DNA from: a virus
Lineage: Duplodnaviria > Caudoviricetes
Length of the DNA stretch: 53,531 nt
IMG/VR virus record: IMGVR_UViG_3300004806_000031
Span: 1 to 53,531 of that record
Strand: one strand, 5' to 3'
This document shows, piece by piece, positions 3,321 through 40,064 of this stretch (positions are counted from its first letter, which is position 1; each line of letters begins with the position of its first letter). The notes beneath the pieces were generated by a model. That model had not been told where the DNA came from. It saw nothing but the letters and a program-made list of their open reading frames with translations, and ran no database searches. The position numbers were made by a program, and so were the translations under genes.

Positions 3321-3321
3321 A

Positions 3322-5054: not shown

Positions 5055-5057
5055 TCC

Positions 5058-5774: not shown

Positions 5775-5777
5775 ACG

Positions 5778-8688: not shown

Positions 8689-8689
8689 A

Positions 8690-9259
8690 ATGAATTTTTC
8701 ATTGAAAAAACAACGAGTTCGCCTGTCTAAAAGCGCCCGCGCGCGGCTCCCGCGTCCAGAGCGCGTCATGACCGACGCTGTAGCCAGAGTTGCTCAGCCC
8801 GATGACGAGGAAGGCATCATGACTTTGGCGCGGATGATTCACCAAGAAATTGGAATGTTTGAGTTAAATGAGCAAAAAGTCCGCGATACTATCCGCCCTA
8901 TGCTACATAAGCATTTTGGCATTATTGGCGTGGTGGGAAATAAAGACAATCTTGAGGCAATGATTTTGCTTCGGGTGGCTAATAATTGGTATTCGGACAC
9001 GCCATTTTTGGAAGAAATGTCTGTCTTTGTTCGCCCCGAATACAGGAATGCTACTGTTTCTCGCGTCCAAAAGATGATAGAATTTGCAAAAAAGGCCGCT
9101 GATGGCCTTGGCTTGCCGTTAATGATTGGCGTTTTGTCAAATCAGAGGACAAATGCTAAAGTTGAACTCTATGAAAAGCACTTTGGTGACCCGGCGGGTG
9201 CTTTCTTCATTTATGGGGCAAGGACGGGACAGCCTGAAGGGGCTGACCTTGCGTCTTAA
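8690..9259 (+). CDS. GNAT-fold acyltransferase-like protein
   Basis: RVAQPDD..I, then EMSVFVRPEYR (motif A-like) and LYEK; directly precedes the ejection-type protein. Confidence 0.7.
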   Translation: MNFSLKKQRVRLSKSARARLPRPERVMTDAVARVAQPDDEEGIMTLARMIHQEIGMFELNEQKVRDTIRPMLHKHFGIIGVVGNKDNLEAMILLRVANNWYSDTPFLEEMSVFVRPEYRNATVSRVQKMIEFAKKAADGLGLPLMIGVLSNQRTNAKVELYEKHFGDPAGAFFIYGARTGQPEGADLAS

Positions 9260-9276
9260 AGTTTAGGAGAAGGCCC

Positions 9277-12200
9277 GTGTGCGGTTCTAAAGGTACGTCC
9301 ACTACAACTTCCACTTACTCCCCTCCCGCGGGCGTTCAAGCCAATTATGACTATTTGGCTAACCAAGCGAAGCAAGTGTCGGCTACGCCTTTTCAACAAT
9401 ACACGGGCGAAATGGTTGCTGGCCTGACCCCCACGCAAGAGGCGGGGATATCTAATGTCAATGCATCGGCTGGACTAGCGCAACCATATTTTCAGGCTGG
9501 AACGGGATACGTTCAACAGGCAGCGAATCCATTTAACCAGCAATCCCTTAATCAATATATGTCGCCATACATCAATGATGTCGTGGCGCAGACAATGGCC
9601 AACTTGAACGAAACCAATGCCCAACAACAGCAACAAGTGTTGGGCAATCAAATTCAGCAAGGCGCGTTTGGCGGAGACCGCGGGAAAATCGCTCAAGCCG
9701 AGTTGGTCCGCCAGCAGAATTTAGCGAATGGCCAGACATTGGCCAACGTTCTCCAAGGCGGCTACGGCCAAGCATTGGGGCAATTTAACGCCGATCAGGC
9801 CCGCGCTTTGCAAGCCGGTTCAACTCTTGGGACATTCGGCACTCAGGCTCAGTCGGCAGCAATGCAGGGCGCTCAAGCGCAATTGTCTGCTGGCGCGCAA
9901 CAGCAAGCAGTCCAGCAAGCGCAAGACGTTGCAAATCAGCAGCAGTTCCAAGCGGCTCAGGCTTATCCGTTCCAAACAACCCAATTTTTGGGCAATATGT
10001 TGTTGGGTATTGGGGGGCAATCAGGCGGCACGGCACTTACAAGTGCGCCCGGTCCAAATATTGGGTCGCAAGTTTTGGGTGGCCTTACTACGTTGGCATC
10101 TATTCCGTGGGGGTCAGACGAACGCCTTAAAGAAAATATGGAGCCTGTCGGAAAAACCTTCGACGGACAAAATATTTACAAATTCAACTACAAGGGCGAC
10201 GGCCACACAATGCTTGGCTTAAGCGCGCAGGAAGTTGAAAAGCATAACCCAAATGCGGTTCACCGTGACGATCAAGGCATGCGTATGGTTGACTACGAGT
10301 CAGCGACACATGATGCTGCCGACAAGGGCCATTTTGCCCGCGGCGGCGTCGCTGATTGGATGGGTGGAGCAGTGCAAGAGGGATTGGGGCGCGCGCATTT
10401 TGAACTTGGCGGGATGCCATATTCAGACCAACCAACTGGCGGGTCAACAAAGCCATTGACGTTGGCCGATGTCATGCGTGTTTCAAATGCTATTCTTGCT
10501 AATAGGCCGGGCGGAAAAACTAATATTCCCCAAGCGCCAAAACCGTACGACGACACCGGAATTACAGATGTCGCAAAACAATTGGCGAATGCAACGCCAG
10601 AACAAAGAGCGAATATGAAGGCAAATATTGCCTCTATTCGCAATAATCTTGGCCTCGGCACAGTGGATGCTGCATCTATTATTGCGCCAACAAATTATCC
10701 TGATCAAACGGCAATGGGCGGTATGTACGGTCGTTTTGCGTCAGGTGGTTTGGTGGGCCGTAAAGCATACGCTGGAGATGATGGCCAATCTGGGGGCGTT
10801 TTGCCGTCCGATGGGAAAACTTTGTTCGAAAAAGCCACTGGCATGAATTTGTCTGACAATGCCCGCATGGGGCTGCTTGCTGCTGGCTTGGGTATGCTGT
10901 CTAGCCGCTCCCCATTCTTTGGCGTGGGCGTTGGTGAGGGCGCAACTGCGGGCCTTGGCACCTACTATAATGCTCTCGCCAACCAACGCGCTTATGAAAA
11001 CAAGCAGCGCGAATTGGGTTTAACAGAAGAAGAGCGTGAAATTGGACGGACACAAGCCGCCGCCTCGACGCTGAATGCTCAATCGACGGCAAAAGATGTT
11101 GCACTTAGAACCTTGGATAAAATTAAACAAAGTTACAGTTTAGGCACTGGTGACCCAATGTATCCTGATGGCCACGTCAATGGCCCATACGGGAAGCATA
11201 TGTCTTACGATGAATATCGCAAGCAAATGAGTGGAATGCTGGCCGCATCAGGGGCGTTACCCCCAGAATTAGTAAATATTTTATCCGACCCATCCCAATT
11301 AATTTCTCCTGCACCTTCCGTTGCAGGAAAGGCGTTGGGCGGTTCGGCGACAAACGCCAATCAAAGTGACGACCAATCAAACGCGAGCATTGTGGCAACT
11401 GCGCCCGCTCCAGACCAAGGGGCCGACGTAGAAAAGCCTATCCAATTGGCGCAAGCAGCGACTGGATCCTCAGCGACCGATCAGGGAGGAATGCAACCAA
11501 TTGATTATGACAAGTTGGCGCAAGATGCTTTGCGCCGTCGAGATATTGCGCGGTCGCACCCAGAATTTGCAAATTCTGACGCGGTGGCGAAGGCCGCTCA
11601 AGAAGATTACGATAAGTATTCTAAATTGTCGCCAACAATCCAAAAACAAGCGCGCGATTTAGAGGCGCAACAAAAGGCTATGGAATTGGGCATCACGCAA
11701 ATGGGTGATGTTGATAAAGGGTTGGGTGATCGTTCAGATTCACGCCCAGCCGCGCGCGCCCGCATCAACGACGCATCAAAACTTCTTTCCCTTTGGCAAT
11801 CGGGTCGCTTGAGTGACATTAAAGCGGCAGCGCCAGCGATTGCGGCGTCATTAGGCTTAGACATTAAAAACTATGCATTAAATGATGCGGCCTCGTATGA
11901 AACATTTACGAAGGACGCAACGCAAGCAATGTTTGACAAGGTTAAAGACCTTGGTGGCCGTATTTTGGTGACTGAAATTGAAGGCCAAAAACAAGCGAAT
12001 ATGAACCCCGACCTGCAACCAAAAACCAACCGCAACATTATTGGCGTTGCGAAGGGATTGATGGATGCTGAAGACAAATTCTTCGACGATTACAATACTT
12101 GGCGAGCCGGTGACGGTAAGTATGCAAACCTCGCACAATATAATGCGTGGAAGGCGGCGTGGCGCAAAGACCCCCAAAATAATTTAGATAATTTTATTGA

Positions 12201-12393
12201 TCAGGGGCGCGCCAATACTCCAGTTCGCGGCGACTTTGCTACGAATGAAAAAGAACGAAAGGCGGGATATAAGTATGTAATTCCGCCCGAAAAACTTGGC
12301 GACGAGCAACGCGCTCAATATCCAAATGGGTTGATTGCTCGTTGGACAGGTAAAGGTTGGGATCCGACGTCTTTGGAGGCTCCAGAGTTCTAA
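9277..12393 (+). CDS. Internal virion/ejection protein with internal peptidase S74-like (autocleaving chaperone) domain
   Basis: AGGAG then GTG start (MCGSKG); Q/A-rich pilot-like N-terminus; SDERLKEN...GLSAQEVE at about 10114-10300. Confidence 0.75.
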   Translation: MCGSKGTSTTTSTYSPPAGVQANYDYLANQAKQVSATPFQQYTGEMVAGLTPTQEAGISNVNASAGLAQPYFQAGTGYVQQAANPFNQQSLNQYMSPYINDVVAQTMANLNETNAQQQQQVLGNQIQQGAFGGDRGKIAQAELVRQQNLANGQTLANVLQGGYGQALGQFNADQARALQAGSTLGTFGTQAQSAAMQGAQAQLSAGAQQQAVQQAQDVANQQQFQAAQAYPFQTTQFLGNMLLGIGGQSGGTALTSAPGPNIGSQVLGGLTTLASIPWGSDERLKENMEPVGKTFDGQNIYKFNYKGDGHTMLGLSAQEVEKHNPNAVHRDDQGMRMVDYESATHDAADKGHFARGGVADWMGGAVQEGLGRAHFELGGMPYSDQPTGGSTKPLTLADVMRVSNAILANRPGGKTNIPQAPKPYDDTGITDVAKQLANATPEQRANMKANIASIRNNLGLGTVDAASIIAPTNYPDQTAMGGMYGRFASGGLVGRKAYAGDDGQSGGVLPSDGKTLFEKATGMNLSDNARMGLLAAGLGMLSSRSPFFGVGVGEGATAGLGTYYNALANQRAYENKQRELGLTEEEREIGRTQAAASTLNAQSTAKDVALRTLDKIKQSYSLGTGDPMYPDGHVNGPYGKHMSYDEYRKQMSGMLAASGALPPELVNILSDPSQLISPAPSVAGKALGGSATNANQSDDQSNASIVATAPAPDQGADVEKPIQLAQAATGSSATDQGGMQPIDYDKLAQDALRRRDIARSHPEFANSDAVAKAAQEDYDKYSKLSPTIQKQARDLEAQQKAMELGITQMGDVDKGLGDRSDSRPAARARINDASKLLSLWQSGRLSDIKAAAPAIAASLGLDIKNYALNDAASYETFTKDATQAMFDKVKDLGGRILVTEIEGQKQANMNPDLQPKTNRNIIGVAKGLMDAEDKFFDDYNTWRAGDGKYANLAQYNAWKAAWRKDPQNNLDNFIDQGRANTPVRGDFATNEKERKAGYKYVIPPEKLGDEQRAQYPNGLIARWTGKGWDPTSLEAPEF

Positions 12394-14651
12394 TGGCTAA
12401 TCAACAACAGAAAATTTTATCGGACGCTGATTTGGGTATTGTTGGGACGCCAACCCAAACAAACCAAAATGCTGCCGCGCCTCAACAGCCCACACAACCC
12501 CCAAATAAGTCTGTTTTATCTGACGCTGATTTGGGGTTGTTGTCTGCGCGGCCAGATTTGCGCCCAACTTACGATGTCCCCAAAAGCGCATTGTCTGCGG
12601 CTGAACGCATGCCAATTGGATTTGTTAATGCGCCCGCTGACATTATGAATTTTGTGTCTGACGCATTGGAAAAAGGCTTGGCAACAACTGTTGATGGCGC
12701 AATAAATCTTTACAATTCTGCCGTTGGCGACACAGACACTCCTGAAGGCAAGCGTCGTTTGGAAGTTGCCCGAGGTGCTTTGAGTAAAGCGCATGAAACA
12801 AATTTAGCGACGCGCCCCTATTCAACTTCACAAATTGCCACGGAAGTTGACCCGTATGCTCGTCAAGTGCTGCCTGTTGGACCCGCGTATCAGTCAAAAA
12901 CTGGCCCCGGACAATTTACGCAAACGGCTATTGATGTTGCTGGGCCGGGCATGTTTGGTAAAGGGAAACTTGCGACAAAATTGTTGCGCGGCGCTACTTC
13001 TGTTCTTGGGGTTGAGGCGGCGGATACTGCCGCTGACTACGCTGGCTTGACTGACCCAACAACTCGCACGGCATTGAGTATGTTGGGAGGCATTACTGGC
13101 GGCGGTGTTGGTGAAATGGCCGTGCGCGGCAAAAATGTTGTCGGCAATATTGTTGACCCAACACAGGCGGCAAATGAACGAATTGCTCAGGTTATTAAAC
13201 AAGCCAGAGAAGAAGGGCGAGCGCCAACTGACGCAGAAATTCAACAAGCACTTGCGTCAAATGCGCCGCTAACGGCTTACGATTTAGCGGGCGAGCGCAG
13301 TCCTGAACTTGTAAATCCAGCAGCCACTGGCCCAGAGCGAGACGCTCTGTTGCAAATAAATAAGGCCATTCAAGATCGTGGCGCGGCGGCATTTGGTCGT
13401 GTCAACGATGGCTTGGATAATATTCTTGGCCGCAAAGTTGACGCCGGTGAAACGCGCGCAAAAATTTCTGAGCAACAAGGTATAGACAATAAAGCAAATT
13501 ATGAAAAAGCATTAAGTGACCCTCTAGCAGCAAACATGGAATCGCCAACGGTTATGAAATTAAAGGATAACCCTTTAATTCAAGGCGCTTACAACGACGC
13601 TGTAAAAACTTTGGGTGGGTATTCCCCGTCATTAAAGTTTTGGGATCAAGTTAAGCGCAATTTGGATGACGCCAGTAATGCGGCATTTCGTCGAGGCGAG
13701 GGCAACTTGGGGTCTGATTTATCGACTGTCCGCAATCAATTGCGTGATGATCTAAAATCACAAAATCCAACTTACGCTGACGCATTGTCTGGCGCGTCTG
13801 ATTTTTTCAAAGCCAAAAATGCAGTTGATGCGGGGTATAAATACGCAAGTAAATTTAATACTTTCGACGCTGCCCAAGTGAGACAGGCTATTTCTAAATT
13901 TAGCCCAGACCAATTGGCTTTGTTTCAAGAAGGTTTTGTTAGTGCTTTGAAGGATAAAGCGCAGGGTGGTGCCGATAAACTTTTAACAGGCCTTGATAAA
14001 GCATCGTCGGTTGGGAAATTAAATGATGTGTTCCCGTCCAAAAATGGAACACAAGCGCGTCAAATCCAAAGCATGGTTGATTTGGAAAATATGACGCGCG
14101 ACGTTGACACAATTAAACTTGCCCAAAATCTTGGCGAAAGCAGTCAGGCTGGCGCTGGAAACCGCATGCTTGAATTTGCAGTTTCCGGTGCTTCTGGATT
14201 AGGTTTAGGAGCATTTCAAGGTCCAACAACAGGGACCATTGCTGCTTTAGGAACTTTCCTCGCAACGGAGGCAACGCGTGGCGTTTTAAGCGCCGCTCAA
14301 AAAAACGTGGCGCGTCAAGTTGCTGAAACATTGGCGTCTGGCGACGCTGGGAAAATTGCAGAATTGTCTAAGTTGGCCGAGACAACGCCAGCCGTAAAGA
14401 CAACACTGCAAAAACTAGAACCATTCCTCGCGCATACCGCACTGACCATGACTGGCGTTAATGCAGCCAATGCAAATCAACGCCCGCAACGCGCGTCGGG
14501 CGGGTCCGTCATCGACAAAAAGGCAGACGCTTTGGTGAGCGAATCACTCCGCAACCAAAAATTAATCGCCAATCACACAGAGCAAATGCTTTCGATGCCC
14601 GACGACGCGGTGATGCAAGCGTTACATGTAGCGCGGAGCGTGGCGGCCTAG
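12393..14651 (+). CDS. Large internal virion/ejection protein
   Basis: TAATG coupling; Ala-rich helical sequence; duplicated LSDADLG near the N-terminus; last gene of the late operon. Confidence 0.7.
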   Translation: MANQQQKILSDADLGIVGTPTQTNQNAAAPQQPTQPPNKSVLSDADLGLLSARPDLRPTYDVPKSALSAAERMPIGFVNAPADIMNFVSDALEKGLATTVDGAINLYNSAVGDTDTPEGKRRLEVARGALSKAHETNLATRPYSTSQIATEVDPYARQVLPVGPAYQSKTGPGQFTQTAIDVAGPGMFGKGKLATKLLRGATSVLGVEAADTAADYAGLTDPTTRTALSMLGGITGGGVGEMAVRGKNVVGNIVDPTQAANERIAQVIKQAREEGRAPTDAEIQQALASNAPLTAYDLAGERSPELVNPAATGPERDALLQINKAIQDRGAAAFGRVNDGLDNILGRKVDAGETRAKISEQQGIDNKANYEKALSDPLAANMESPTVMKLKDNPLIQGAYNDAVKTLGGYSPSLKFWDQVKRNLDDASNAAFRRGEGNLGSDLSTVRNQLRDDLKSQNPTYADALSGASDFFKAKNAVDAGYKYASKFNTFDAAQVRQAISKFSPDQLALFQEGFVSALKDKAQGGADKLLTGLDKASSVGKLNDVFPSKNGTQARQIQSMVDLENMTRDVDTIKLAQNLGESSQAGAGNRMLEFAVSGASGLGLGAFQGPTTGTIAALGTFLATEATRGVLSAAQKNVARQVAETLASGDAGKIAELSKLAETTPAVKTTLQKLEPFLAHTALTMTGVNAANANQRPQRASGGSVIDKKADALVSESLRNQKLIANHTEQMLSMPDDAVMQALHVARSVAA

Positions 14652-27778: not shown

Positions 27779-28030
27779 ATGCTTATGTCTGATTATGATG
27801 AAGTGCCGATGCTCACTGTCAGCATCATTAATGATGAGGTCGCTGATAATATCGTCGATCTTGATTGGGTCGAGGAATTTGATTTGATGCCGTTCGAGAC
27901 GCAGATCGCTTTCCTTGAGCAGTTGATTGACCAACTTGAGCAGACGCTTGAGTGGGTTCTTGAGGCGGCTGAGGATGCCGATGATTTATCTGACGAAGCG
28001 GATGAGGAAGAAGACGACGCTGATGCTTGA
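27779..28030 (+). CDS. Extremely acidic protein (DNA-mimic candidate)
   Basis: About 30 D/E in 83 aa and no K, R or H. Confidence 0.7.
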   Translation: MLMSDYDEVPMLTVSIINDEVADNIVDLDWVEEFDLMPFETQIAFLEQLIDQLEQTLEWVLEAAEDADDLSDEADEEEDDADA

Positions 28031-28104
28031 TAATGCTATTGGTTGCGGCGGGGTTAATCGCCTTGCCGCAATCACACTGGCAAGCACAAGCATAAGGTAA
28101 CACA

Positions 28105-28731
28105 ATGCCAGATACACACACAGACAACAGCAAGACAGCCAATGCTCATGCTTTGACAGACAAGCAAGCCAAGGAAAAGAAGCGCAAGGGCAATGCAATG
28201 GACCCGCAAGAAAAGGCAAAGATAGCCAACAAGGGCATGCTCACAATTGCTGATGTCGATGCCATGCTTGACCCGAAGAAGAGCAGGGGAAGGCCGACAA
28301 TGTATAGCGAGGAAATGCGTGACAGAATATGCATGTATCTCGCGAATGGCATTACAATGGCCAAAATATGTCAGACAGATGGCATGCCAGCGTTTGATAC
28401 TGTTTGGAAGTGGACTATGCGCCACCCAGATTTTGCGGAAGCCACCGCGCGCGCCCGTGAAATTGGCACGCATTACCTTGCCGACGACTGCATTCGGATA
28501 TCGGACGACCCTGAACTGGATCCCGCTGACAAGCGCGTGATGATCGACACCCGCGTTCGGCTAATTGGTAAGTGGAACCAATACTATAGCGACCGTCAGC
28601 AGGTGCTTGTCGCGGGCAAGATCGACGTCCAACCCATTGATGTGAACGCATTGGACTTTGACCAGCGCGATGCATTGGCGAGCATGCTTGAAGCAGTAGC
28701 ATTGCCCAGCCCTGATCAGGATGATCTATAA
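28105..28731 (+). CDS. terS: Terminase small subunit (Sf6 gp1-like)
   Basis: GRPTMYSEE..DRIC..LANG.....IC..DGMP...TV.KW....PDF.....RARE signature. Confidence 0.88.
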   Translation: MPDTHTDNSKTANAHALTDKQAKEKKRKGNAMDPQEKAKIANKGMLTIADVDAMLDPKKSRGRPTMYSEEMRDRICMYLANGITMAKICQTDGMPAFDTVWKWTMRHPDFAEATARAREIGTHYLADDCIRISDDPELDPADKRVMIDTRVRLIGKWNQYYSDRQQVLVAGKIDVQPIDVNALDFDQRDALASMLEAVALPSPDQDDL

Positions 28732-28828
28732 CACCCAGTGCTAGGATTGCATTAGAAGACCAAGGACGGCCTTTATGCTCATGCTAGGCAATCACACATG
28801 CCAGCCAAGAGATTGCCGCTGTTGACGA

Positions 28829-28843
28829 ATTCACGTTTTGTTC
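28829..28843. promoter_or_regulatory. LexA box (alphaproteobacterial type) beside TTGACG
   Basis: ATTC-ACGTTTT-GTTC. Confidence 0.6.
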
Positions 28844-28885
28844 TGTTTCCATAATGGGAATAAAAGCATAAACGCACGCTATGCA

Positions 28886-29073
28886 ATGCTCGTGCTTGCC
28901 CATGCTCATGCTTGCGTATAGTCATGCTTACGCACCGTTATACTCATGCTTACCTATCTGTATGGTCATGCTTACGATGCGTCACGCTTATGCTTATCTG
29001 CCGTATGGTCATGCTTAACGTATCGTTATGCTTATGCTTAACGTATAGTCATGCTTTACCAATGGTCATGCTT
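28886..29073. repeat. Imperfect tandem array of YATGCTT cores, partly 22-bp phased
   Basis: Cores at 28891 (variant), 28907, 28923, 28945, 28967, 28989, 29010, 29027/29033, 29050 and 29067. Confidence 0.9.
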
Positions 29074-29075
29074 TG

Positions 29076-29168
29076 GTTCTGCTTTCGTTCACCTTTTGTT
29101 CCGCTCGGTCGCGCGCGATAGAACAAACCGTGAACAAACAGGGAACAGACCGTGAACAAAACCAGAAC
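29076..29168. repeat. 11-bp phased GTTC x3 and GAAC x5 array (tandem LexA boxes)
   Basis: GTTC at 29076, 29087 and 29098; GAAC at 29121, 29132, 29143, 29154 and 29165. Confidence 0.85.
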
Positions 29169-29273
29169 ATGGGGGTGGGGTGGGGGTGGCGGCACCCCCC
29201 GCTAATGGGCTAGGTCCCCATACGGATTCGCACGCAATCCACTCGGACATTTCAAAAATCTGTCCAAAGCAAT

Positions 29274-29302
29274 TTGACATCCCACGTAAACGCCCCTATG
29301 TA
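29274..29302 (+). promoter_or_regulatory. Sigma70 promoter
   Basis: TTGACA-N17-TATGTA. Confidence 0.7.
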
Positions 29303-29307
29303 TGCTT

Positions 29308-29486
29308 CAGTCATGCGGCGGCGTGGAAAGCAGACACGCAGCAATTTATGGGTAAACAGGAACCACAATACGAGCGCCCATACGTCCCAAGTCCATACGG
29401 CCAGTGGTAGGGCTATGTTATGGCGGATGTCGATTACCACAGATCGTTTTGGTTCCAGCCGGAGTAGCGACCGGCCCGCATGACTG
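29308..29486 (+). ncRNA. tRNA-like structured RNA candidate
   Basis: 11-bp terminal stem, D-like and T-like hairpins and a long internal arm; starts just after a promoter. Confidence 0.6.
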
Positions 29487-29494
29487 TTCATCAT

Positions 29495-29523
29495 TTGACA
29501 TCCCCCGTAAACTGTAGCATAAG
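29495..29523 (+). promoter_or_regulatory. Sigma70 promoter (paralogous to 29274)
   Basis: TTGACA-tcccccgtaaactgtag-CATAAG. Confidence 0.6.
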
Positions 29524-29809
29524 CATACCACTGGCCTACACTGGTTTGCGTTCCGGTCTGGCTGTGGCGTCTGCTCGTACGCTTATGGTAAACGCAATGC
29601 TGTCACGCTGGGCGGGGGCGTGGCTTAAGACAATGGAAAGCCACTCAGGCAATTCATAGCCCGTCCCCTTTTATTTTGTTCAAGGGGGTGGGGGTGGGGT
29701 ATCCTTATGGCCCCGTATTCAATACAAATTATCAACAGGCCGCGGGACTCCAGCGCATAGTTGGCCCCTATAATTTGCATGATACGCAAAAGCGACAAAG
29801 GAACCACTC

Positions 29810-30298
29810 ATGACTGCCAAACCCCAAAGCGACGGGTCATTTGAACTAATGTCCTTGAAGGGCCTTAAGGAAAAATACCAATCACCGGTGCAGCCGCCCA
29901 AACAATCAAATTCTGGCAAGCCCTTGTCATGGTGGAAAAAGGTTAAGCAATACCTTAACCGTAACCAAATTTTGCGGGAAGAGAATGCGCGGCTGCAAGC
30001 AAAACTTTTGGAAGCCATCCACACATCGCAAGAGTCTGGACACAATGGGCTAAAGTTGTATGCCGAAAACGAAGCACTGCACTTTGTTGTAGCGGAATTG
30101 CGGAAAGACCTCGAAGCATCAAAAAAGCATCCGTATGAATTTAATGGCGAAAGTCGTTACTACTTCATGGATAGAATGAGGGCCGCCGAAGAAAAGTTGG
30201 GCATGCTTCAACTTCAACATGACAGCCTAATGGAATGTTATGGCCGCATATTGAAGGATTGGGAAAATCTGACCGGAATTAAATTCAACCCAAAATAA
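29810..30298 (+). CDS. Coiled-coil hypothetical protein
   Basis: AAGGA RBS; 162 aa ORF. Confidence 0.65.
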   Translation: MTAKPQSDGSFELMSLKGLKEKYQSPVQPPKQSNSGKPLSWWKKVKQYLNRNQILREENARLQAKLLEAIHTSQESGHNGLKLYAENEALHFVVAELRKDLEASKKHPYEFNGESRYYFMDRMRAAEEKLGMLQLQHDSLMECYGRILKDWENLTGIKFNPK

Positions 30299-30333
30299 TA
30301 CCCGCCAACTTATTAAATATAAACTAACACCCC

Positions 30334-30366
30334 AATTGACAGTCCCAAGTTTACGCGCTATGTAAA
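30334..30366 (+). promoter_or_regulatory. Sigma70 promoter, copy 1 of a 33-bp direct repeat
   Basis: TTGACA-N17-TATGTA; matches 30922-30954 at 32 of 33 bases. Confidence 0.75.
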
Positions 30367-30378
30367 GGACATTCGGAA

Positions 30379-30468
30379 TACCCACCAATATAGTCTCCCT
30401 GCAACCGAGGCGGCAACGGGCAAGCGTTTAAGGCGCTACAAGGTTAGGTTCGGTTTATTGGTGGGGTA
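30379..30468 (+). ncRNA. Structured RNA or leader candidate
   Basis: CCCACCAATA/TATTGGTGGG 10-bp stem plus AACCGA/TCGGTT and inner hairpins. Confidence 0.45.
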
Positions 30469-30526
30469 AGTATATTTGGGACCGTGAAACTTAACAAGCC
30501 GTCATTTACATTAACGGAGAAATAAA

Positions 30527-30910
30527 ATGGAAAAAACTGGTGATAAGGGGCTTGGCATAAGGACGTGCAACATTATCCCGCTTTTAAGTGCTTCAACTAA
30601 TTTCTATCGTCAGCATTGGGATTCCATGCCCCAAAATACCAATCGTGAATACATAGAGTTTATGGCAACAGCGAGTAAGGACCTATTTGATGATCCTGAG
30701 GACGTTTTGTCAAAATTGCTTATGAGTGAAATTAATAGGATTCATGAAACAAAAGTTTGGCAGCGAAATGCTATTTATAAAAACAAGCAAGAACTAAGGT
30801 GGAACATTGAATGGAAAGTTTTCCCAGAATGCAATGAATCGGAAAAATTCGCAAAAATTTATGCAAGGTTTGCAATTTATCCAGAGCCTGTTACAGAAGC
30901 GACAAGTTGA
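30527..30910 (+). CDS. Hypothetical protein (promoter-flanked cassette)
   Basis: GGAGA RBS; AT-rich. Confidence 0.65.
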   Translation: MEKTGDKGLGIRTCNIIPLLSASTNFYRQHWDSMPQNTNREYIEFMATASKDLFDDPEDVLSKLLMSEINRIHETKVWQRNAIYKNKQELRWNIEWKVFPECNESEKFAKIYARFAIYPEPVTEATS

Positions 30911-30921
30911 CACTACACGCA

Positions 30922-30954
30922 AATTGACAGTCCTAAGTTTACGCGCTATGTAAA
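30922..30954 (+). promoter_or_regulatory. Sigma70 promoter, copy 2 of the 33-bp direct repeat
   Basis: TTGACA-N17-TATGTA. Confidence 0.75.
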
Positions 30955-30981
30955 TGCAATGAATTGCAACGGAGAATAAAC

Positions 30982-31197
30982 ATGACTACTGACGATCAAC
31001 TAGACAAGCGGCACCAAGCACTACACAAAATTGGCGAGGCAGTTGATGGACTGAAATACGCGGAAGTCCTTGGCGTGTTGGCTTCCTTTGCCAGCCTTGT
31101 CCTTGATGAATTGCCACCCGAAGTGCGGGCAAATGCCGCCAAAGGATTTTACGAAGCAATTTGCGAGCCATCCCAACCACGGATAATCATCCAATGA
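30982..31197 (+). CDS. Hypothetical protein
   Basis: GGAGA RBS. Confidence 0.65.
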   Translation: MTTDDQLDKRHQALHKIGEAVDGLKYAEVLGVLASFASLVLDELPPEVRANAAKGFYEAICEPSQPRIIIQ

Positions 31198-33037: not shown

Positions 33038-33249
33038 CTGAATGGCAACCAATAGAAACCGCGCCAAAAGATGGAACGCGCATTCTTGCTTATGGTCGTT
33101 GTGGGTTTGAATCCATATCAGGAATTGCAACTGTTAAGTGGCATCGTAATTCATGGATTTGTGATCCAAATGAAGCGACTGAATATGATTATGAAGAGTG
33201 TCAGGTTACTCATTGGATGCCACTTCCTCCTTGCCCCGCCGGAAAATGA
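33034..33249 (+). CDS. DUF551-family protein
   Basis: WQPIETAPKDG...VTHWMPLP. Confidence 0.85.
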   Translation: MTEWQPIETAPKDGTRILAYGRCGFESISGIATVKWHRNSWICDPNEATEYDYEECQVTHWMPLPPCPAGK

Positions 33250-33265
33250 TGTTATACTGGATGCC

Positions 33266-33769
33266 ATGAAGATACGTGGTCAAACAGTTTACCCATTAAA
33301 AGAACGCCTTGATAGGCTTTCTAAGGCAATGCCTTCTGGCTGCATTGAATGGCAGTCAACAATAAGAAATGGGTACGGGCGTTTAATTATAGGCTCCCGT
33401 ACTGATGGTAGCAGGAAGTCTGTTTCTGCCCATAGATTGGCTTACGAAGTTTATGTTGGGGAAATTCCCGATGGAATGTTTGTTTGTCATACCTGTGACA
33501 ATCCTAAGTGCATAAACCATGAACATTTATTTGTTGGAACACGGCAAGACAATGTGGATGACAGGGAAAACAAACAACGCAATAAAATGCCGCCTGTTGC
33601 AAAAAATGAACAAGCGTATTTTGTCAAATATACCGATGATATAATTAATAAAATACGACAAGAAACTGGACCAAGCAGATTAGCCGCTGCCAAATATGGC
33701 GTCAGTGAAAGATACGTAAGAGACATAAGAAATAATAAATATAGAAAATTACCGGAGCCGCCAAAATGA
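33266..33769 (+). CDS. HNH homing endonuclease
   Basis: CIEW..GYG..AHRLAY...VCHTCDNPKCINHEHL..GT..DN; own promoter TTGCCC-N16-TATACT at 33231-33258. Confidence 0.88.
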   Translation: MKIRGQTVYPLKERLDRLSKAMPSGCIEWQSTIRNGYGRLIIGSRTDGSRKSVSAHRLAYEVYVGEIPDGMFVCHTCDNPKCINHEHLFVGTRQDNVDDRENKQRNKMPPVAKNEQAYFVKYTDDIINKIRQETGPSRLAAAKYGVSERYVRDIRNNKYRKLPEPPK

Positions 33770-34890: not shown

Positions 34891-36585
34891 ATGGCAATAG
34901 ATTTACAAAACCTGACAGAAGGCCAGCGGCGGGAACTTGTTCGCCAATTAAAGGCCAAAAATTACGAGGAAAGCCTGTATGACTTTACAGTCAGGGCTTG
35001 GCGCGAGGTTGACTCCGCGCCATTTGCCCACGGCGGATTCGCCTTGCAAGCCATATGTGAACACCTTCAGGCATGTTGCGACGGGTATATCCGTAATTTG
35101 ATCATTAACGTCCCGCCCCGCTTTTCAAAGTCAACCATTACGGGGACAATGTTTCCCGCGTGGGTGTGGACGCAAAGCATAAGCAGCCCAACGTCCGGCC
35201 CCGGTATGCAATTTTTGCATTCCTCATATGCAATGAATTTGTCAATTCAGGATTCGGTCAAGTGCCGACGCTTGATTGAAAGCAAGTGGTATCAAACACT
35301 GTGGGGCAACCGCTTTAAGTTGGTGGGCGACCAAAACACCAAGACGCGGTTTCAAAATGACAAGAATGGCATACGCAATACTGTGTCGGTTGGATCAGCC
35401 ACCACCGGCTTGGGCGGTAACTATTTGATTGCCGACGATCCTAACAATGCTCAGGAAGCCAATTCGGAGGCAATTATTGCCTCGACAATTGAGTGGTGGG
35501 ACATGGCGTGGTCAACCCGCCTCAACGACCCCAAGAAAGGCGTCAAGATTGTCATTCAGCAACGCCTGTCGGAGCAGGATGTTACCGGACACATTTTGTC
35601 AAAGGACGTGGGCGATTGGACACACTTGTGCTTGCCAATGCGATTTGAGGCGGCGCGTCGAACTTACAATGTATTAGTCCCCGCGGAATTAAATGGCGGG
35701 GAGGCGGTGGTGTGGACAGACCCCCGCACTGAGGAGGGGCAACTTCTTTGGCCCGAACGTTTTGGCGAGCAAGAAGTTAACTTGCTGGAGAAGACCCTTG
35801 GCCCCTACGCCACGGCGGGGCAATTGCAGCAACGGCCTGAACCAGCGGGCGGCGGTATTATCAAGCGCGAGTGGTGGGGCGAGTGGACCAAAGAAAAATA
35901 CCCACACAATTTGGAAATTGTTGTCGCGTCGGTCGATACTGCTTTCGGCGCAAAGGAATTTGAGGGTGACTTCTCCGCTTGCACTATTTGGGGCGTTTAC
36001 CGTGACGCTGGCCCAACGACCGGCATCGTGGGCGGAGACATGGGCGGAAGTTGGCAACGCATTTCAGCGGAGGAGCGCGAGGCTGACGTCCCCAAGGCTA
36101 TCATAATGCATGCGTGGCAGGGACGCATGGAATTGCATGAACTGGTGCAAAAGATTGCCGCGTCGGCCAAGGAGTGGAAAATTGATATGCTCCTGATTGA
36201 AAACAAAGCGTCAGGTATATCGGTCAGCCAAGAATTGCGTCGTCTATTTGGCGGAGAAAGTTACGGCGTCCGCCTCATTGACCCCAAGGGATTGGATAAA
36301 GTGGCGCGCACTTACTCAATTCAACACTTGTTTTCGGAGGGCATGATTATGGCCCCCACCGACCCGTCTGGCGAGGTATTCCGCGTGTGGGCCGAAATGG
36401 TTGTGGCGCAGTGCGCGACATTTCCAAAAGGCAAGCATGACGACTTACATGATACTGTCACGCAAGCATTGAATTGGTTGCGCTCAACTGGAATGCTTCA
36501 GCGTGGCGCGGAGCGGACGGCGGAATTGGCCAGCATGAAACAATTTGTCAGTGGCCGTGAAACGCAACCACTTTACCCAATATAA
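34891..36585 (+). CDS. terL: Terminase large subunit
   Basis: NVPPRFSKS (Walker A variant), LIADDP (Walker B), SVDTA, IENKASG and FPKGKHDDLHD. Confidence 0.95.
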   Translation: MAIDLQNLTEGQRRELVRQLKAKNYEESLYDFTVRAWREVDSAPFAHGGFALQAICEHLQACCDGYIRNLIINVPPRFSKSTITGTMFPAWVWTQSISSPTSGPGMQFLHSSYAMNLSIQDSVKCRRLIESKWYQTLWGNRFKLVGDQNTKTRFQNDKNGIRNTVSVGSATTGLGGNYLIADDPNNAQEANSEAIIASTIEWWDMAWSTRLNDPKKGVKIVIQQRLSEQDVTGHILSKDVGDWTHLCLPMRFEAARRTYNVLVPAELNGGEAVVWTDPRTEEGQLLWPERFGEQEVNLLEKTLGPYATAGQLQQRPEPAGGGIIKREWWGEWTKEKYPHNLEIVVASVDTAFGAKEFEGDFSACTIWGVYRDAGPTTGIVGGDMGGSWQRISAEEREADVPKAIIMHAWQGRMELHELVQKIAASAKEWKIDMLLIENKASGISVSQELRRLFGGESYGVRLIDPKGLDKVARTYSIQHLFSEGMIMAPTDPSGEVFRVWAEMVVAQCATFPKGKHDDLHDTVTQALNWLRSTGMLQRGAERTAELASMKQFVSGRETQPLYPI

Positions 36586-37730: not shown

Positions 37731-37742
37731 TTGGCCTATAAT
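37714..37742 (+). promoter_or_regulatory. Sigma70 promoter for the portal/head operon
   Basis: TTGCGA-N17-TATAAT. Confidence 0.6.
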
Positions 37743-37769
37743 GCGCGGAACTTCAACAGGATACCGCAC

Positions 37770-40064
37770 ATGGCACTGACGCCCGGTCTCGTTCCAAACC
37801 TTCGTCTTGATCAAGATGAGCCTGAAAACACTCTCGGCGAGGGTCAAGACACCATTGTCATTATGGACGCCGACGAGGGCGCGGATCTGCCGGAGTTGGA
37901 TGCCGATGGAAATGTGTTACGGATTGACCACGGGGACGGCTCTATTAGCGTTTCGCTTGACGGCAACCCTATACAATCTGGCAAGAAAAATAAAAACGAG
38001 GGCTGGTTTGCTAACTTGGCCGAAGATTTAAGCGAGACAGAACTGTCATCTATTGCAGAAAAGTTAATTAGAGGAATTGAGGAAGACATTGAATCCCGCA
38101 AAGATTGGATTGAGGACCGCGCGCAAGGTTTGCGCCTTCTTGGCCTTAAAATTGAACTTCCGGGTCTCCAAGGGACGGCGGACGGCGCACCACTTGAGGG
38201 AATGTCACGCATTCGGCACCCGCTCTTGCTTGAGGCAGTGCTACGATTCCAAGCGAACGCCCGGTCAGAACTATTGCCTACGGATGGACCCGTAAAGGTA
38301 AGGGTTGACGGCAACCAAGACTCGCCAGAAGTAGATCAAATGGCGGAGTATTTGGAGCGTGATTTTAATCACTACCTGACCGCGGTGGCCAAGGAATACT
38401 ACCCAGACACCGACAAAATGCTATTTATGCTTGGTTTTGGCGGCTCATCGTTCAAAAAAGTGTATTTTTGCCCACTACGCAACCGCCCGGTGTCTGAAAC
38501 GGTCGATGCGGACGATTTAATTGTCAATAATGAGGCCACAGACCTGTCAAATGCCCGCCGAGTGACCCACAAAATCTCAATGAGGCCGTCTGTCGTCAAA
38601 CGCATGCAGATTATTGGCGCTTACCGTGACGTTGACCTTGGCTCGGCCAAGGAAAAAGACCTAAATGCGGTCGAAAAAGAAAAAAATGCCATTGGCGGCG
38701 TCGAGGGAGACGTCCGCGACGTTGAAGATCGTGACCGCGAAATTTACGAATGCTACTGCGAACTGGATATTTTGGGATTTGAGCATAAAATTGACGGCGA
38801 GGAGACAGGTTTAGAAGTCCCCTACCGCGTAACCATCGACGCCTCGTCCAAAAAAGTGCTAAATATTGTCAGAAATTACAAAGAAGAAGAACAAGATTTG
38901 CCTGAGGCGCTTGTTCACTTTGTAAAATTTGATTTTGTGCCGGGATTGAAGTTTTACGGCATGGGATTGCTCCATATTTTGGGCAATACGACCAATGCAC
39001 TGACCGCGGCGTGGCGCGAATTGCTTGACGCTGGCATGTACGCCAATTTCCCCGGCTTTTTGTATGCCAAGGCGGCTGGGCGTCAGAATACTAACATATT
39101 CCGTGTGCCTCCGGGCGGCGGCGCTCAAGTGGACACGGCTGGCATGCCCATCCAACAGGCCGTTATGCCGTTGCCATACAAGGAGCCGTCCGCGGCATTG
39201 GGCGCGTTGGCGGAAAACATTAGCCAATACGGCCAGCGGGTCGGCGGCACGTCTGAATTGCAAGTGGGCGAGGGAAAGTCTGACGCGCCGGTCGGGACAA
39301 CTTTGGCCATTATTGAGCAAGCGCAAAAGGTTTTGAACAGCGTCCACAAGCGTCTGCATGCGGCTCAGGCGGACGAATTTCAATTGCTGGCGCAGTGTTT
39401 CCGTGACCACCCAGAATCATTCTGGCAACGCAACAAGCGGCCAGCAACGCAGTGGGATGAGAAAATATTCCTTGATGCGTTGGAAAATTATGAATTGGTT
39501 CCCCAAGCCGACCCAAATACGGCCAGCCACATTCAGCGGGTGATGAAAGTCACGGCCTTGATCCAGTTGGCGCAGCAAGCGCCTGATCTTTATAACCTTG
39601 ATGCTGTAAACCGCGAGGCATTGCTGACCCTTGGTTGGGCAAACCCGTCATCGTTGTTGCGTGACACCGTTAACCAGCCCGCCCCGCCTGACCCGCAAGC
39701 AATGGCCGCGCAAACTGCGGCGCAAGCGGCCATGATCACCGCACAGTCAAAGATGACTGAGGCTCAGGTCAAGGTTCAGGAGTTGCAAAACAAGACCGGG
39801 GGCGGCCAAGGCATGGCCCCAGAGGATCAGGTCAAGTTGGCCGAAATCCAGCAGAAGAACATCGACGCGCAATTGGATGCCACGAACCGCAAGCGCGACC
39901 GCGAGAGCCGTGAGCGGCTGGCTGCAATGAAGTTTGCGGAGGAAATGGCGGAGAATCCGTCTGGTTTGGCTATTGCTCGCCAATTGATTGACCCCGGCAT
40001 GTTACAGAGACTTGAAGGAAACGAACCAGAAATGTCTCCCACGCCCGGCGGCGTCATCCAGTAG
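37770..40064 (+). CDS. Portal protein
   Basis: HPLLLEAVLRFQA, GSSFKKVY, FYGMGL.H.LG and APVGTTLA motifs; follows terL. Confidence 0.9.
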   Translation: MALTPGLVPNLRLDQDEPENTLGEGQDTIVIMDADEGADLPELDADGNVLRIDHGDGSISVSLDGNPIQSGKKNKNEGWFANLAEDLSETELSSIAEKLIRGIEEDIESRKDWIEDRAQGLRLLGLKIELPGLQGTADGAPLEGMSRIRHPLLLEAVLRFQANARSELLPTDGPVKVRVDGNQDSPEVDQMAEYLERDFNHYLTAVAKEYYPDTDKMLFMLGFGGSSFKKVYFCPLRNRPVSETVDADDLIVNNEATDLSNARRVTHKISMRPSVVKRMQIIGAYRDVDLGSAKEKDLNAVEKEKNAIGGVEGDVRDVEDRDREIYECYCELDILGFEHKIDGEETGLEVPYRVTIDASSKKVLNIVRNYKEEEQDLPEALVHFVKFDFVPGLKFYGMGLLHILGNTTNALTAAWRELLDAGMYANFPGFLYAKAAGRQNTNIFRVPPGGGAQVDTAGMPIQQAVMPLPYKEPSAALGALAENISQYGQRVGGTSELQVGEGKSDAPVGTTLAIIEQAQKVLNSVHKRLHAAQADEFQLLAQCFRDHPESFWQRNKRPATQWDEKIFLDALENYELVPQADPNTASHIQRVMKVTALIQLAQQAPDLYNLDAVNREALLTLGWANPSSLLRDTVNQPAPPDPQAMAAQTAAQAAMITAQSKMTEAQVKVQELQNKTGGGQGMAPEDQVKLAEIQQKNIDAQLDATNRKRDRESRERLAAMKFAEEMAENPSGLAIARQLIDPGMLQRLEGNEPEMSPTPGGVIQ

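Follow-up and report, generated by a model that had tools for sequence, protein, structure and literature searches.

In the noncoding region that follows the small terminase gene of a Caudoviricetes record (the window, i.e., the whole 53,531-nt stretch of DNA analysed here) lies a segment of about 180 nt that a first-pass annotation had drawn as a tRNA mimic of YrlA- or tmRNA-like topology, possibly a decoy for anticodon nucleases or a scaffold RNA. Is this segment a gene, to which known RNAs is it related, and what would a phage do with a tRNA-shaped RNA?

The element in the window

The five helices and the promoter-like hexamers described in that annotation were found where it had placed them or within one base, and define the following parts:

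29308..29486, + strand: whole tRNA-shaped RNA element, 179 nt including the 11-bp stem (R1 match, fold and covariation)
29308..29318, + strand: 5' strand CAGTCATGCGG of the closing (acceptor-like) stem (inverted repeat I13)
29319..29320, + strand: CG linker, where nucleotides 8-9 of a tRNA would lie
29321..29339, + strand: D-position hairpin (GCGTG 29321-29325, loop GAAAGCAGA, CACGC 29335-29339)
29340..29457, + strand: variable middle domain (two helices in the window clade, an unrelated domain in other lineages)
29359..29365 and 29450..29456, + strand: closing helix of the middle domain, GGAACCA/TGGTTCC (clade version GGAACC/GGTTCC, 29359-29364/29451-29456)
29404..29409 and 29435..29440, + strand: inner helix of the middle domain, GTGGTA/TACCAC
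29458..29475, + strand: T-position hairpin (GCCGG 29458-29462, loop AGTAGCGA, CCGGC 29471-29475), directly abutting the 3' strand of the closing stem
29476..29486, + strand: 3' strand CCGCATGACTG of the closing stem (inverted repeat I13; covariation)

The two strands of the closing stem pair perfectly (CAGTCATGCGG/CCGCATGACTG, 11 nt at 100% in the inverted-repeat search), and the window element has neither a TTC loop nor a CCA after the stem, as had been observed beforehand. R1, a covariance model of the family core, matches at 29310-29484 over its full length (95.6 bits, E 8e-16), its sole match in the window. Taken from the window sequence alone, without relatives, the structural case is modest: the + strand folds at -65.9 kcal/mol (z = -2.87, with 2 of 200 shuffles as good), the - strand reaches z = -2.14 (6 of 200 shuffles as good), and 17 inverted repeats lie within the same 1.3 kb as the element. 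One of these, a 22-nt, 82% complement between 29399-29420 and 29515-29536 (inverted repeat I1), was considered as a functional pairing and set aside, being not kept in the flanks of relatives, and is taken as chance or iteron likeness. All 24 sequencing runs containing the region 28000-31000 of the window are freshwater DNA contig sets, and contigs from four of them span the element without differences.

Upstream and downstream of the element, three further features were located:

28105..28731, + strand: small terminase gene (TerS), Sf6 type (PF20901, 91.6 bits; phrog_1482, 1.8e-27), upstream neighbour of the noncoding region
29274..29302, + strand: promoter-like site (TTGACA 29274-29279, 17-nt spacer, TATGTA 29297-29302), ending 5 nt before the closing stem
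29493..29512, + strand: promoter-like 20-nt word ATTTGACATCCC[A/C]CGTAAAC, repeated 221 nt after its first copy (29272-29291)

Relatives in the window clade retain the promoter-like site, as TTTACA-N17-TATATG/TATGTA/TATATA at equal distance, and more distant family members lack it. A consensus promoter scan of 28000-30500 gave 4 sites (vs. 3.5 expected), none of them at this site, which went uncalled because TATGTA lacks the final T. The 20-nt word has two matches in the window vs. 0.00 expected, and its copies bracket the element. Further downstream, the element heads a + strand gene block of ~39 kb (29810 to 53531, continuing 1 to 14651) that includes the large terminase (TerL), portal, virion and tail genes. 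The window holds no tRNA gene (ARAGORN).

Extent of the family

A search with the 3' motif of the core yielded 8 loci from viral records, 37 from metagenomes and 1 from a genome; motif-bearing entries, including the window, number 48, some of which are one contig held twice. The exact 5' sequence CATGCGG lies 119-201 nt upstream of the 3' motif in 46 of the 48, and the other two have UGUGCGG, giving two G.U pairs. Searching with the 5' motif by itself brought in at least 120 viral stretches, and R1 matched all of the 100 viral loci fetched in this way (L079-L178), as well as the named phages Persinger, PotUPM1 and POI1126 and one Stappia prophage, each of these four with one element copy in the R1 search. 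One copy per genome is the usual number; tandem copies occur in locus L159. The named phages were found by a 31-nt core query (blastn, GenBank phages); the 1.15-kb element region and two related loci gave no blastn match among GenBank phages. A 16-mer scan returned 30 loci; the element is present in only 4 of these, the others being chance matches.

By these matches, the family is one of well over 100 viral members that is absent from the RNA family libraries searched. The Rfam check proposed in the first-pass annotation was run (Rfam 15) and matched no known family at the element, nor did ARAGORN. None of the R1-matched copies carries an RNA annotation, and in GenBank records the gene is either unannotated or covered by "hypothetical protein" calls. 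Named carriers are the Pseudomonas phages Persinger, PotUPM1, D14H and the Ori group, Ochrobactrum phage POI1126 and the Stappia indica prophage, so that the range covers phages or prophages of at least Pseudomonas, Ochrobactrum and Stappia, together with many uncultured freshwater and other viruses. Among 401 genomes sampled from the phylum to which the Stappia genome belongs, the 5' motif occurs in two. It is rare in cells, consistent with carriage by prophages.

Core architecture and covariation

The core common to the family consists of a closing stem of 8-9 bp, the CG linker and two hairpins. The first hairpin has the loop GAA(A)GCAGA; the second, with the loop NNUAGCGN (loop core UAGCG), stacks on or abuts the 3' strand of the closing stem. 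Most often this stem is 8 or 9 bp long (25 and 29 of 106 members), with an inner GCGG that is fixed family-wide (GCGG/CCGC) and variable outer bases. Across 78 members, the outer pairs take all four Watson-Crick types, with pairs 3-5 partly selected by the search rule.

Covariation was measured first on an initial alignment (A4), in which core pairing is 95.4% and none of 500 shuffles matches, and on an alignment of 78 diverse members (A10), in which the three core helices are 97.0% paired vs. 81.1% when shuffled and 30.8-45.6% when slid. In A10, 11 of the 19 core pairs changed on both sides (240 cells), again a result matched by none of 500 shuffles. The D-position hairpin is 100% paired in A4, with three pairs changed on both sides, and 98.5% paired in A10. 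The T-position hairpin, which is not part of the pattern that fetched most A10 loci, is 99.2% paired there, and all five of its pairs changed on both sides somewhere. The CG linker is invariant in A10, where it was included in the search pattern; it is also found in 19 of the 20 distinct sequences fetched by the 3' motif (the exception, L061, has AA). Much of the invariance of the core sequence is imposed by the search patterns; that it is real is supported by each half being conserved when fetching used the other half only.

Covariation among homologues, on which the first-pass annotation had made its case depend, was equally found close to the window: in eight sequences of the window clade, the five helices that it had drawn are 96.0% paired (vs. 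26.8-45.6% with slid partners), six pairs changed on both sides, and none of 500 shuffles matches. Of the two middle-domain helices, the third of the five is 87.5% paired in this clade and the fourth 97.9%, with two double changes in the latter. At the level of comparative sequence analysis, this confirms the flagged segment as a real, strongly conserved phage RNA-type gene of ~175 bases.

Its strand and coding status were also considered. Within 17 inner pairs, G.U outnumbers A.C by 7 to 2, a weak test of strand. Two 1-nt indels separate the window from the L003 clade, and therefore no coding frame runs through the element; coding potential was ruled out on this ground. Together, these data support a structured RNA-type element on the + strand. 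We also considered reading its two loops as a loop E (bulged-G) motif (consensus AGUA with GAA), and rejected it: what is conserved in the T-position loop is UAGCG, not AGUA.

A hypervariable middle domain

Between the two hairpins, at the position of the anticodon arm, lies a middle domain of ~40-170 nt that varies to a far greater degree; the smallest members, L179 and L189 among them, measure ~100 nt in all. The middles of 106 distinct members fall into 96 sequence clusters, of which 93 are singletons. Two pairs of loci, L011/L057 and L003/L062, have common flanks and core and unrelated middles, and the two tandem copies in L159 have identical stem and core and, again, unrelated middles. 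The middle domain is swapped between otherwise near-identical loci. A canonical T arm (GGTTCRANNCC) is present in 6 of the 106 middles, two of which (L090 and L172) also have a D-arm-like stretch, and the other 100 showed no tRNA-like motif in this T-arm and D-arm test. No conserved anticodon stem-loop mimic was found in the family.

Complementarity of the middle to nearby DNA was no higher than expected. Against 2 kb on each side, no excess was seen (median best score 18.3 bits, complementary and direct matches being equal), with matches of at least 24 bits numbering 4 complementary vs. 1 direct. Against the whole window genome, the best complement scored 22.3 bits, equalled in 51 of 60 shuffles. 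Seeds of 5-8 nt would be missed by both comparisons.

Comparison with known RNAs

The proposal of a tRNA mimic held for the layout, which is tRNA-like in its terminal stem, 2-nt linker, D- and T-position hairpins and large insert at the anticodon arm, and failed for YrlA membership and a tmRNA-like identity. Identity with tRNA, tmRNA, YrlA and C4 was ruled out. For tRNA, ARAGORN called no gene at the element in the window or in 12 loci, and the Rfam model RF00005 matched only the two true tRNAs of L056. A tRNA has a 7-bp acceptor stem, a TΨC loop and a D loop, whereas the element has a stem of 8-9 bp and the loops GAA(A)GCAGA and NNUAGCGN; in the shortest members, no anticodon arm can be drawn. 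The T-position stem and inner acceptor pairs are GC-rich as in many tRNAs, with a possible likeness to initiator tRNA; neither this likeness nor one to 5S rRNA is borne out by Rfam, which gave no match at the element.

With tmRNA, the element shares a tRNA-like terminal domain (acceptor stem and T arm) around a large, variable, structured insert. It differs in having a T-position loop of UAGCG type rather than TΨC type, hence a core without a canonical T loop, and in encoding no CCA. ARAGORN called no tmRNA in the window, at the element in 12 loci or in the loci searched for tRNA genes, Rfam gave no tmRNA match, and nothing in the middle is conserved that might accommodate a tag frame.

The likeness to YrlA and other Y RNAs is one of principle: according to Chen et al. 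(2014, PMC4201824), these are non-decoding RNAs of tRNA-like architecture, some of them in phages and one a substrate of RNase P, that combine a conserved protein-binding module with a second module. In the same account, YrlA is encoded next to a Ro60/Rsr gene, has D and T arms of tRNA consensus and a GNCGAAN0-1G motif, and its 5'/3' stem is the Ro-binding stem, equivalent to an anticodon stem, with the D and T arms distal (PMC4201824). The ends of the element form an acceptor-like rather than an anticodon-like stem, and its core loops lack the tRNA consensus. The YrlA model RF02553 had no match in the window and none at gathering score in 10 related loci; the Ro60/Rsr domain (TROVE, PF05731) was detected in control genomes and gave no match in the window record or among the neighbouring ORFs scanned.

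Among phage RNAs, C4 of P1/P7 and CI of P4 are cloverleaf-like, are released by RNase P from longer transcripts and have variable specificity parts, with short loop sequences that pair with target transcripts. They measure ~77-79 nt, whereas the element is longer and showed no complementary target in its flanks or in the window genome, and the Rfam C4 model gave no match in 28700-29850 even at E up to 10. The rnaC and rnaD of T4 are stable phage RNAs of ~120-140 nt in a tRNA cluster, on the tRNA strand; four family loci (L099, L179, L134 and L143) likewise lie in tRNA arrays, but the window has no tRNA gene and 96 of the 106 loci have none in the fetched DNA. The fold of rnaC has a terminal stem, a T arm beside the 3' strand and long hairpins in between, with paired changes in relatives, and it has a canonical T loop, unlike the family core. 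The word GAGTAGCG occurs twice in T4, both times in rnaC, and was rejected as a shared motif or sign of homology: it is lost in relatives of rnaC, where part of it is one strand of a covarying stem, and R1 finds nothing in T4 (with filters off it reaches at best 4.5 bits, E 1.3, in the tRNA region; the whole T4 record gave 0 matches). Two papers describe the function of T4 RNA C and RNA D as still unknown (PMC3014915, PMC9697503).

A 2023 catalogue of candidate structured RNAs (csRNAs), for which IMG/VR was mined using comparative genomics ([quoted passage not shown], PMC10690425), includes, in its available text, candidates that are tRNA-like and 14 that precede a putative large terminase. 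That portion of the text describes no motif with the features of the element, and the catalogue may already list the family.

Genomic settings and possible functions

We read the element as the gene for a stable, non-decoding, tRNA-shaped phage RNA that is processed, combines a conserved handle with a variable module and acts in trans, an interpretation that we consider probable though by a long way not secure. Of the functions suggested in the first-pass annotation, a scaffold RNA fits best. In the window, the promoter-like site that precedes the stem by 5 nt would drive its transcription, and elsewhere the RNA would derive from longer transcripts. Host tRNA-maturation enzymes would cut it out, with RNase P acting at its 5' side or on a downstream tRNA and the 3' end being trimmed back to the stem. 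The RNA would then act in trans: its GC-rich inner stem and pair of invariant loops would be the handle for a conserved protein partner, and the middle domain would serve as exchangeable cargo or specificity module. This partner would more likely be a host than a phage protein, because no phage gene travels with the element: clustering of ORFs within 3 kb gave only lineage-specific families, the largest of them TerS, in 12 of 106 loci.

Cleavage by RNase P is what we infer from shape and placement only. Against recognition by RNase P or the CCA-adding enzyme stand a stem of 8-9 bp rather than 7, loops without the tRNA elbow consensus, and the CCA not being encoded (a CCA within 6 nt of the stem occurs in 11 of 106 members vs. 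8 of 106 in the control). An intrinsic terminator within 130 nt downstream was detected in 6 of 101 members vs. 5, 6 and 4 in controls, i.e., without enrichment, and because this frequency equals that of controls the element is probably processed rather than terminated. tRNA genes are absent from the fetched DNA in 96 of the 106 loci; in the 10 that hold any, 22 of 23 tRNA genes are on the strand of the element. In L099, the element is flanked by a tRNA-Ile that ends 3 nt before it and a tRNA-Met that begins 5 nt after it; in L179, a tRNA-Arg begins 3 nt after it; and in L134 and L143 it sits within tRNA arrays. Where tRNA arrays are present, the element is therefore on the tRNA strand and at tRNA-like spacing. 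The strands of neighbouring genes formed no consistent pattern (26/20/24/13 over 83 loci), figures that come from simple ORF calling, which is unreliable in GC-rich DNA.

In the window and several other lineages, the element heads a terminase or late block, an arrangement that speaks against a trans-acting RNA and also fits a cis-acting leader. Such a leader in the late transcript, possible if rather unlikely in our view, could be a tRNA-like punctuation mark for processing or stabilising, as are the t-elements of plant mitochondria, or could act in the manner of the put RNAs of phage HK022, which modify RNA polymerase in cis for processive antitermination. Its appeal comes from the window, where the element directly follows the promoter-like site and precedes ~39 kb of + strand genes, from the TerS or TerL gene that comes immediately after the element in L010/L068, L067, L012/L013/L042 and the Stappia prophage, from PotUPM1, where the element adjoins cI and opens a rightward gene row, and from the rarity of a terminator of its own. 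Other loci fit it poorly, however: tRNAs lie only 3-5 nt from the element in L099 and L179, tRNA arrays enclose it in L134 and L143, it comes 13 nt after the integrase stop in Persinger and after TerS-TerL in L057, and the genes downstream are heterogeneous across the wider family (portal, polymerase, methylase, sheath and integrase in Pfam tallies of crude ORF picks). A hypervariable middle, and tandem copies with differing middles, are also hard to reconcile with a polymerase contact.

That the middle might instead specify base pairing, in a regulatory RNA setting immunity or specificity as C4 of P1/P7 and CI of P4 do, seems doubtful. Swapping of middles between near-identical phages and their divergence between tandem copies are what specificity determinants would show, and several carriers have lysogeny genes or are prophages (the integrase of Persinger, the cI gene that adjoins the element in PotUPM1, the Stappia prophage). 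Yet the middle has no excess complementarity to its 2-kb flanks or to the window genome, where seeds of 5-8 nt would escape notice, the Rfam C4 model does not match, and no integrase was found in the window, whose record is 92% complete.

We are as sceptical of the decoy proposed at first pass, here a sponge for a host tRNA-directed defence enzyme or tRNA-binding factor. The tRNA-like layout, the copies in tRNA arrays, the six middles with a canonical T arm (L090 and L172 being also D-arm-like) and a hypervariability expected of an arms race would all suit it. The conserved loops are, however, unlike tRNA D and T loops, the middle offers no conserved mimic of an anticodon stem-loop and is itself hypervariable, 100 of 106 middles have no tRNA-like motif, and nothing in this analysis ties the element to any defence system.

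A role at the level of DNA, with the inverted repeat acting in packaging or replication as a cruciform or a site for protein binding, is very improbable. It was suggested by the closing-stem arms, which contain AGTCATGC, the core of an iteron (RGTCATGCTT) repeated upstream of the element, by the location of the region, with TerS on one side and a block with possible cos or pac signals on the other, and by the TerS family within 3 kb in 12 of 106 distinct loci. Family-wide, however, the outer arms take any sequence provided that they pair, and therefore the iteron likeness is peculiar to the window clade; the internal hairpins covary too, the strand follows that of the tRNA genes (22 of 23), and the position in the genome varies widely. 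Least credible of all is a decayed tRNA gene, or one with an intervening sequence, which the cloverleaf-like order of helices and the GC-rich T-position stem and inner acceptor pairs might recall, since ARAGORN and the Rfam tRNA model find nothing, the anticodon arm cannot be rebuilt in the shortest members, and conservation of the non-tRNA loops in more than 100 lineages reflects selection rather than decay.

Implications for phage biology

Taking the trans-acting RNA as the preferred reading, it is tempting to speculate, tentatively and with a good deal less confidence, that the family is an unnamed, widespread class of phage RNAs whose invariant handle engages a conserved cellular machine and carries horizontally exchanged cargo, i.e., a modular arms-race effector that would be either an anti-defence decoy or a specificity determinant. 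The few members with tRNA-like cargo would then hint at the target. If this were true, the element would be an RNA counterpart of the modular effectors of the phage-host arms race, its cargo exchanged, duplicated and diversified.

Apart from tRNAs, phages encode few stable RNAs, whose roles are for the most part unknown, with RNAs C and D of T4 unexplained for decades. The present family is tractable, having a sharply defined core, well over 100 natural variants, culturable carrier phages and a modular design, and R1 provides a covariance model usable for its annotation. It thereby opens the question of what a tRNA-shaped phage RNA is for to direct study.

The element and its closest relatives

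The first-pass annotation had picked out a tRNA-shaped RNA at 29308-29486 (+), and every feature it listed was recovered in the window sequence where it had been placed. Single-sequence fold statistics for the element are only suggestive (z = -2.87 on the + strand and -2.14 on the - strand). Six related viral loci were retrieved with the small terminase protein as query: by blastn, two of them (L003 and L004) carry the element, three (L002, L005 and L006) have only adjacent noncoding blocks in common with the window, and one (L007) gives no match. In window-clade alignments the element is conserved far above its flanks, with paired changes in the closing stem (CAGTC..GACTG to TACTC..GAGTA), the T-position stem (GCCGG/CCGGC to GTGGG/CCCAC) and a helix of the middle domain (GTGGTA/TACCAC to ATGGTA/TACCAT). 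Two 1-nt indels fall within it, which excludes a reading frame.

The five helices proposed in the first-pass annotation are 96.0% paired across eight window-clade sequences, with 6 pairs changed on both sides; none of 500 shuffles paired as well, and slid partners reached 26.8-45.6%. In helix GGAACCA/TGGTTCC the outermost A-T pair occurs in the window alone (1/8 sequences). The promoter-like site before the element is conserved in the window clade, where it ends 5 nt before the stem, and is not evident in the flanks of other lineages; a consensus promoter scan makes no call there because the second hexamer is TATGTA.

Genome layout and neighboring noncoding features

The window is the whole of a linear IMG/VR virus record (53,531 bases, completeness estimate 92%) and is organized as follows.

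Gene layout of the window around the element
~15-28 kb: helicase, primase, Erf, Gam-like and nuclease genes (ORF lists and family scans)
28105-28731: Sf6-type small terminase gene (ORF lists and family scans)
Directly 3' of the small terminase gene: noncoding stretch of ~1.08 kb
29810 to record end, resuming 1-14651, +: uninterrupted row of genes
33071-33769, +: HNH endonuclease, within this row
34891-36585, +: large terminase, within this row
37731-40064, +: portal, within this row

The + strand row also includes virion, ejection and tail genes, and no integrase, TROVE gene or tRNA gene was found in the window.

An iteron-like repeat array (28770-29075; core RGTCATGCTT or ATGCTCATGCTT, spacings 16-28 nt) lies directly 3' of the small terminase gene. 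The exact word RGTCATGCTT has 12 copies in the window, 5 of them within 28920-29073, for 0.25 expected in the whole window, and the array could be where terminase (pac/cos) or an initiator binds. Four head-to-tail 11-nt repeats, GAACA(A/G)A(C/A)CNG, occupy 29121-29175 and are also kept in L005 and L006, both without the RNA element. G-run words resembling GGGGGTGGGGTGGGGG (29168-29187 and 29681-29700, 513 nt apart) flank the promoter-element-promoter block, the first being able to pair with a downstream CACCCCCC. A 20-nt promoter-like word is duplicated on either side of the element (29272-29291 and 29493-29512), as if element and promoter copy had been inserted together; L002 has ~190 nt of unrelated sequence at this position. 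A second conserved noncoding block, 29595-29675 (GCTGGGCGGGGGCGTGGCTTAAGACAATGG...CCATAGCCCG), is common to L002 (without the tRNA-shaped element), L011 and L057, has a predicted structure in which some pairs are changed on both sides, and could represent a further RNA or a cos-type site.

A large family with a fixed core

A first pattern, running from the T-position loop through the 3' side of that hairpin's stem into the 3' strand of the closing stem, retrieved 8 viral, 1 genomic (Stappia indica) and 37 metagenomic loci. Motif-bearing entries, including loci already in hand and the window, number 48, several being one contig in two collections. The exact complement CATGCGG lies 119-201 nt upstream of the 3' motif in 46 of these, and L054 and L067 (one sequence) have TGTGCGG instead, giving two G.U pairs on the + strand. 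This set comprises 20 distinct sequences (128-210 nt), with the L054/L067 element (~133 nt) counted apart. The 5' halves, which lie outside the 3' pattern, are nearly identical (GCGG-CG-GCGUG-GAA(A)GCAGA-CACGC), with compensated D-position stem variants in L056 (GUGUG/CACAC) and L061 (GCACG/CGUGC) and a divergent form in L068, and across lineages the stretch separating the two conserved hairpins is unrelated. Pairing over the 21 core pairs reaches 95.4% across the 20 sequences, and 7 of these pairs are changed on both sides (equaled by 0/500 shuffles).

A second pattern, restricted to GCGG, the CG linker and the first hairpin, matched at least 120 viral stretches and gave 118 new loci (L079-L196). 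The exact 7-nt complement of the 5' arm occurs 74-237 nt downstream in 93 of them, this rule having picked an earlier chance complement in a few loci (L123, L129, L139). Directly before the complement, nearly all 93 carry GCCGG-AGUAGCG-N-CCGGC, which lies outside the 5' pattern. R1, a covariance model of the family core built on 78 diverse members and annotated for the three core helices alone, matches all 100 loci L079-L178 (104 matches, 37-98 bits) and all 25 loci failing the complement rule, two of which (L121, L146) are cut by the locus end. Among L179-L196, R1 was applied to L182, L184 and L191, all of which matched, and the rest were identified by the complement rule. The model matches the window exactly once (95.6 bits) and L002, L005, L006 and L007 not at all.

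Core pairing across the 78-member alignment is 97.0% vs. 81.1% when shuffled and 30.8-45.6% when slid, and 11 of 19 core pairs are changed on both sides (240 cells; equaled by 0/500 shuffles), closing-stem pairs 3-5 being selected in part by the complement rule and invariance being imposed by the patterns on the 5' half in the second set and the 3' half in the first. Free of this bias are the conservation of either half when the other served for fetching and the covariation of the T-position stem at 5/5 pairs; the two outermost closing-stem pairs, never selected, are paired in 69/78 and 51/78 sequences. The outer closing stem can have any sequence so long as it is paired, and therefore the iteron likeness of the window arms is a clade trait, not a defining one. 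The element is real and belongs to a large family of tRNA-shaped phage RNAs in which the core is fixed and the middle exchangeable.

The exchangeable middle

Sequence clustering of the middles from 106 distinct elements (76-251 nt, median 155) gives 96 groups, 93 with a single member. Flanks, stem and core are near-identical and middles unrelated between L011 and L057, and likewise between the L003 and L062 groups, so that each scaffold variant is found with both middle types. The tandem copies of L159 (11778-11930 and 12617-12759) share identical stem and core with unrelated middles, and a second, more divergent copy is found in L102 (9141-9316, 10574-10742) and L096 (6610-6823, 8230-8360). 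The two copies in such phages lie within 0.7-1.5 kb, and in second copies the first hairpin loop is sometimes enlarged or the T-position loop altered. A canonical T arm (GGTTCRANNCC) is present in 6/106 middles (L090, L172, L041, L130, L115, L101); in L090 and L172 a D-arm-like stretch accompanies it, hence a second tRNA-like body nested in the first. Complementarity of the middle to the flanks and to the window genome does not exceed that of controls.

Named carriers

A 31-nt core query matched 10 GenBank phage records, namely Pseudomonas phages PotUPM1, Persinger (2 records), vB_PaeS-D14H, Orimi01 and Orisa01-03, and Ochrobactrum phage POI1126 (2 records), in which the match is annotated with no feature or as "hypothetical protein." Such CDS calls overlap the element in PotUPM1 (3099-3431), Orimi01 and Orisa01-03, and are likely over-annotations. 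R1 identifies full-length elements in Persinger (52.9 bits), PotUPM1 (65 bits) and POI1126 (75.1 bits), with one copy in each and one in the Stappia genome; the 5' motif occurs in 2 of 401 sampled genomes of the latter's phylum. The contexts are varied: 13 nt 3' of the integrase stop codon on the same strand in Persinger (2996-3094), adjoining cI in PotUPM1, among small genes close to the capsid gene in POI1126, and between helicase-primase genes and TerS/TerL in the Stappia prophage. The Persinger position is one where attP is often found.

Comparison with known RNAs

The family is not described in Rfam: Rfam 15 gave no gathering-score match for the window and 10 diverse loci, and at E up to 10 the sole row across 28700-29850 is a chance lncRNA match. 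The tRNA and tmRNA identities are rejected, as ARAGORN finds nothing in the window or at the element in 12 loci, and the Rfam C4 family does not match. A YrlA identity, compared on the defining features given in PMC4201824, is likewise rejected, with no TROVE gene in the window and no RF02553 match. Closest in placement and general build are T4 rnaC and rnaD, whose function is likewise unknown according to PMC3014915 and PMC9697503; homology is rejected in the absence of an R1 match, the T4 genome holding zero R1 copies. The 168,903-base T4 genome has just two copies of GAGTAGCG, both in the rnaC sense strand (1409-1547, minus), and the word is not kept in rnaC of more distant T4-like phages. 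Literature searches with the element's exact sequences found no paper, and keyword searches found nothing on such an element save a possible overlap with the candidate lists of the catalogue PMC10690425, available in part, which are the main reservation on the family's novelty.

Probable RNA nature and function

Several lines point to the element acting as RNA, from the + strand. Genes for tRNAs occur in 10/106 distinct loci, and 22 of the 23 tRNAs share the element's strand (ARAGORN). The element of L099 lies 3 nt downstream of a tRNA-Ile and 5 nt upstream of a tRNA-Met, that of L179 lies 3 nt upstream of a tRNA-Arg, and those of L134 and L143 sit inside tRNA arrays. G.U outnumber A.C combinations 7 vs. 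2 at the 17 inner pairs, with two further G.U contributed by L067.

At the 3' end, an intrinsic terminator lies within 130 nt downstream in only 6/101 members (controls 5, 6 and 4), and no CCA is encoded, this triplet occurring within 6 nt of the closing stem in 11/106 members vs. 8/106 in a control. The count of G at positions +1 to +5 after this stem is 6, 16, 8, 10 and 11 of 106, and the G-poor trailer could be an unpaired tail or serve as a signal for processing. The tRNA-maturation machinery may excise the element, in keeping with the spacing in tRNA arrays, the lack of terminator enrichment, the missing CCA and the G-poor trailer; cutting of the element itself by RNase P is left open by its 8-9 bp closing stem and non-tRNA loops.

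The main rival reading, a leader acting in cis, appears rather improbable to us. On balance, we lean toward a processed trans-acting RNA, in which the conserved core would be a handle binding a conserved partner, and the middle would serve as a variable module.
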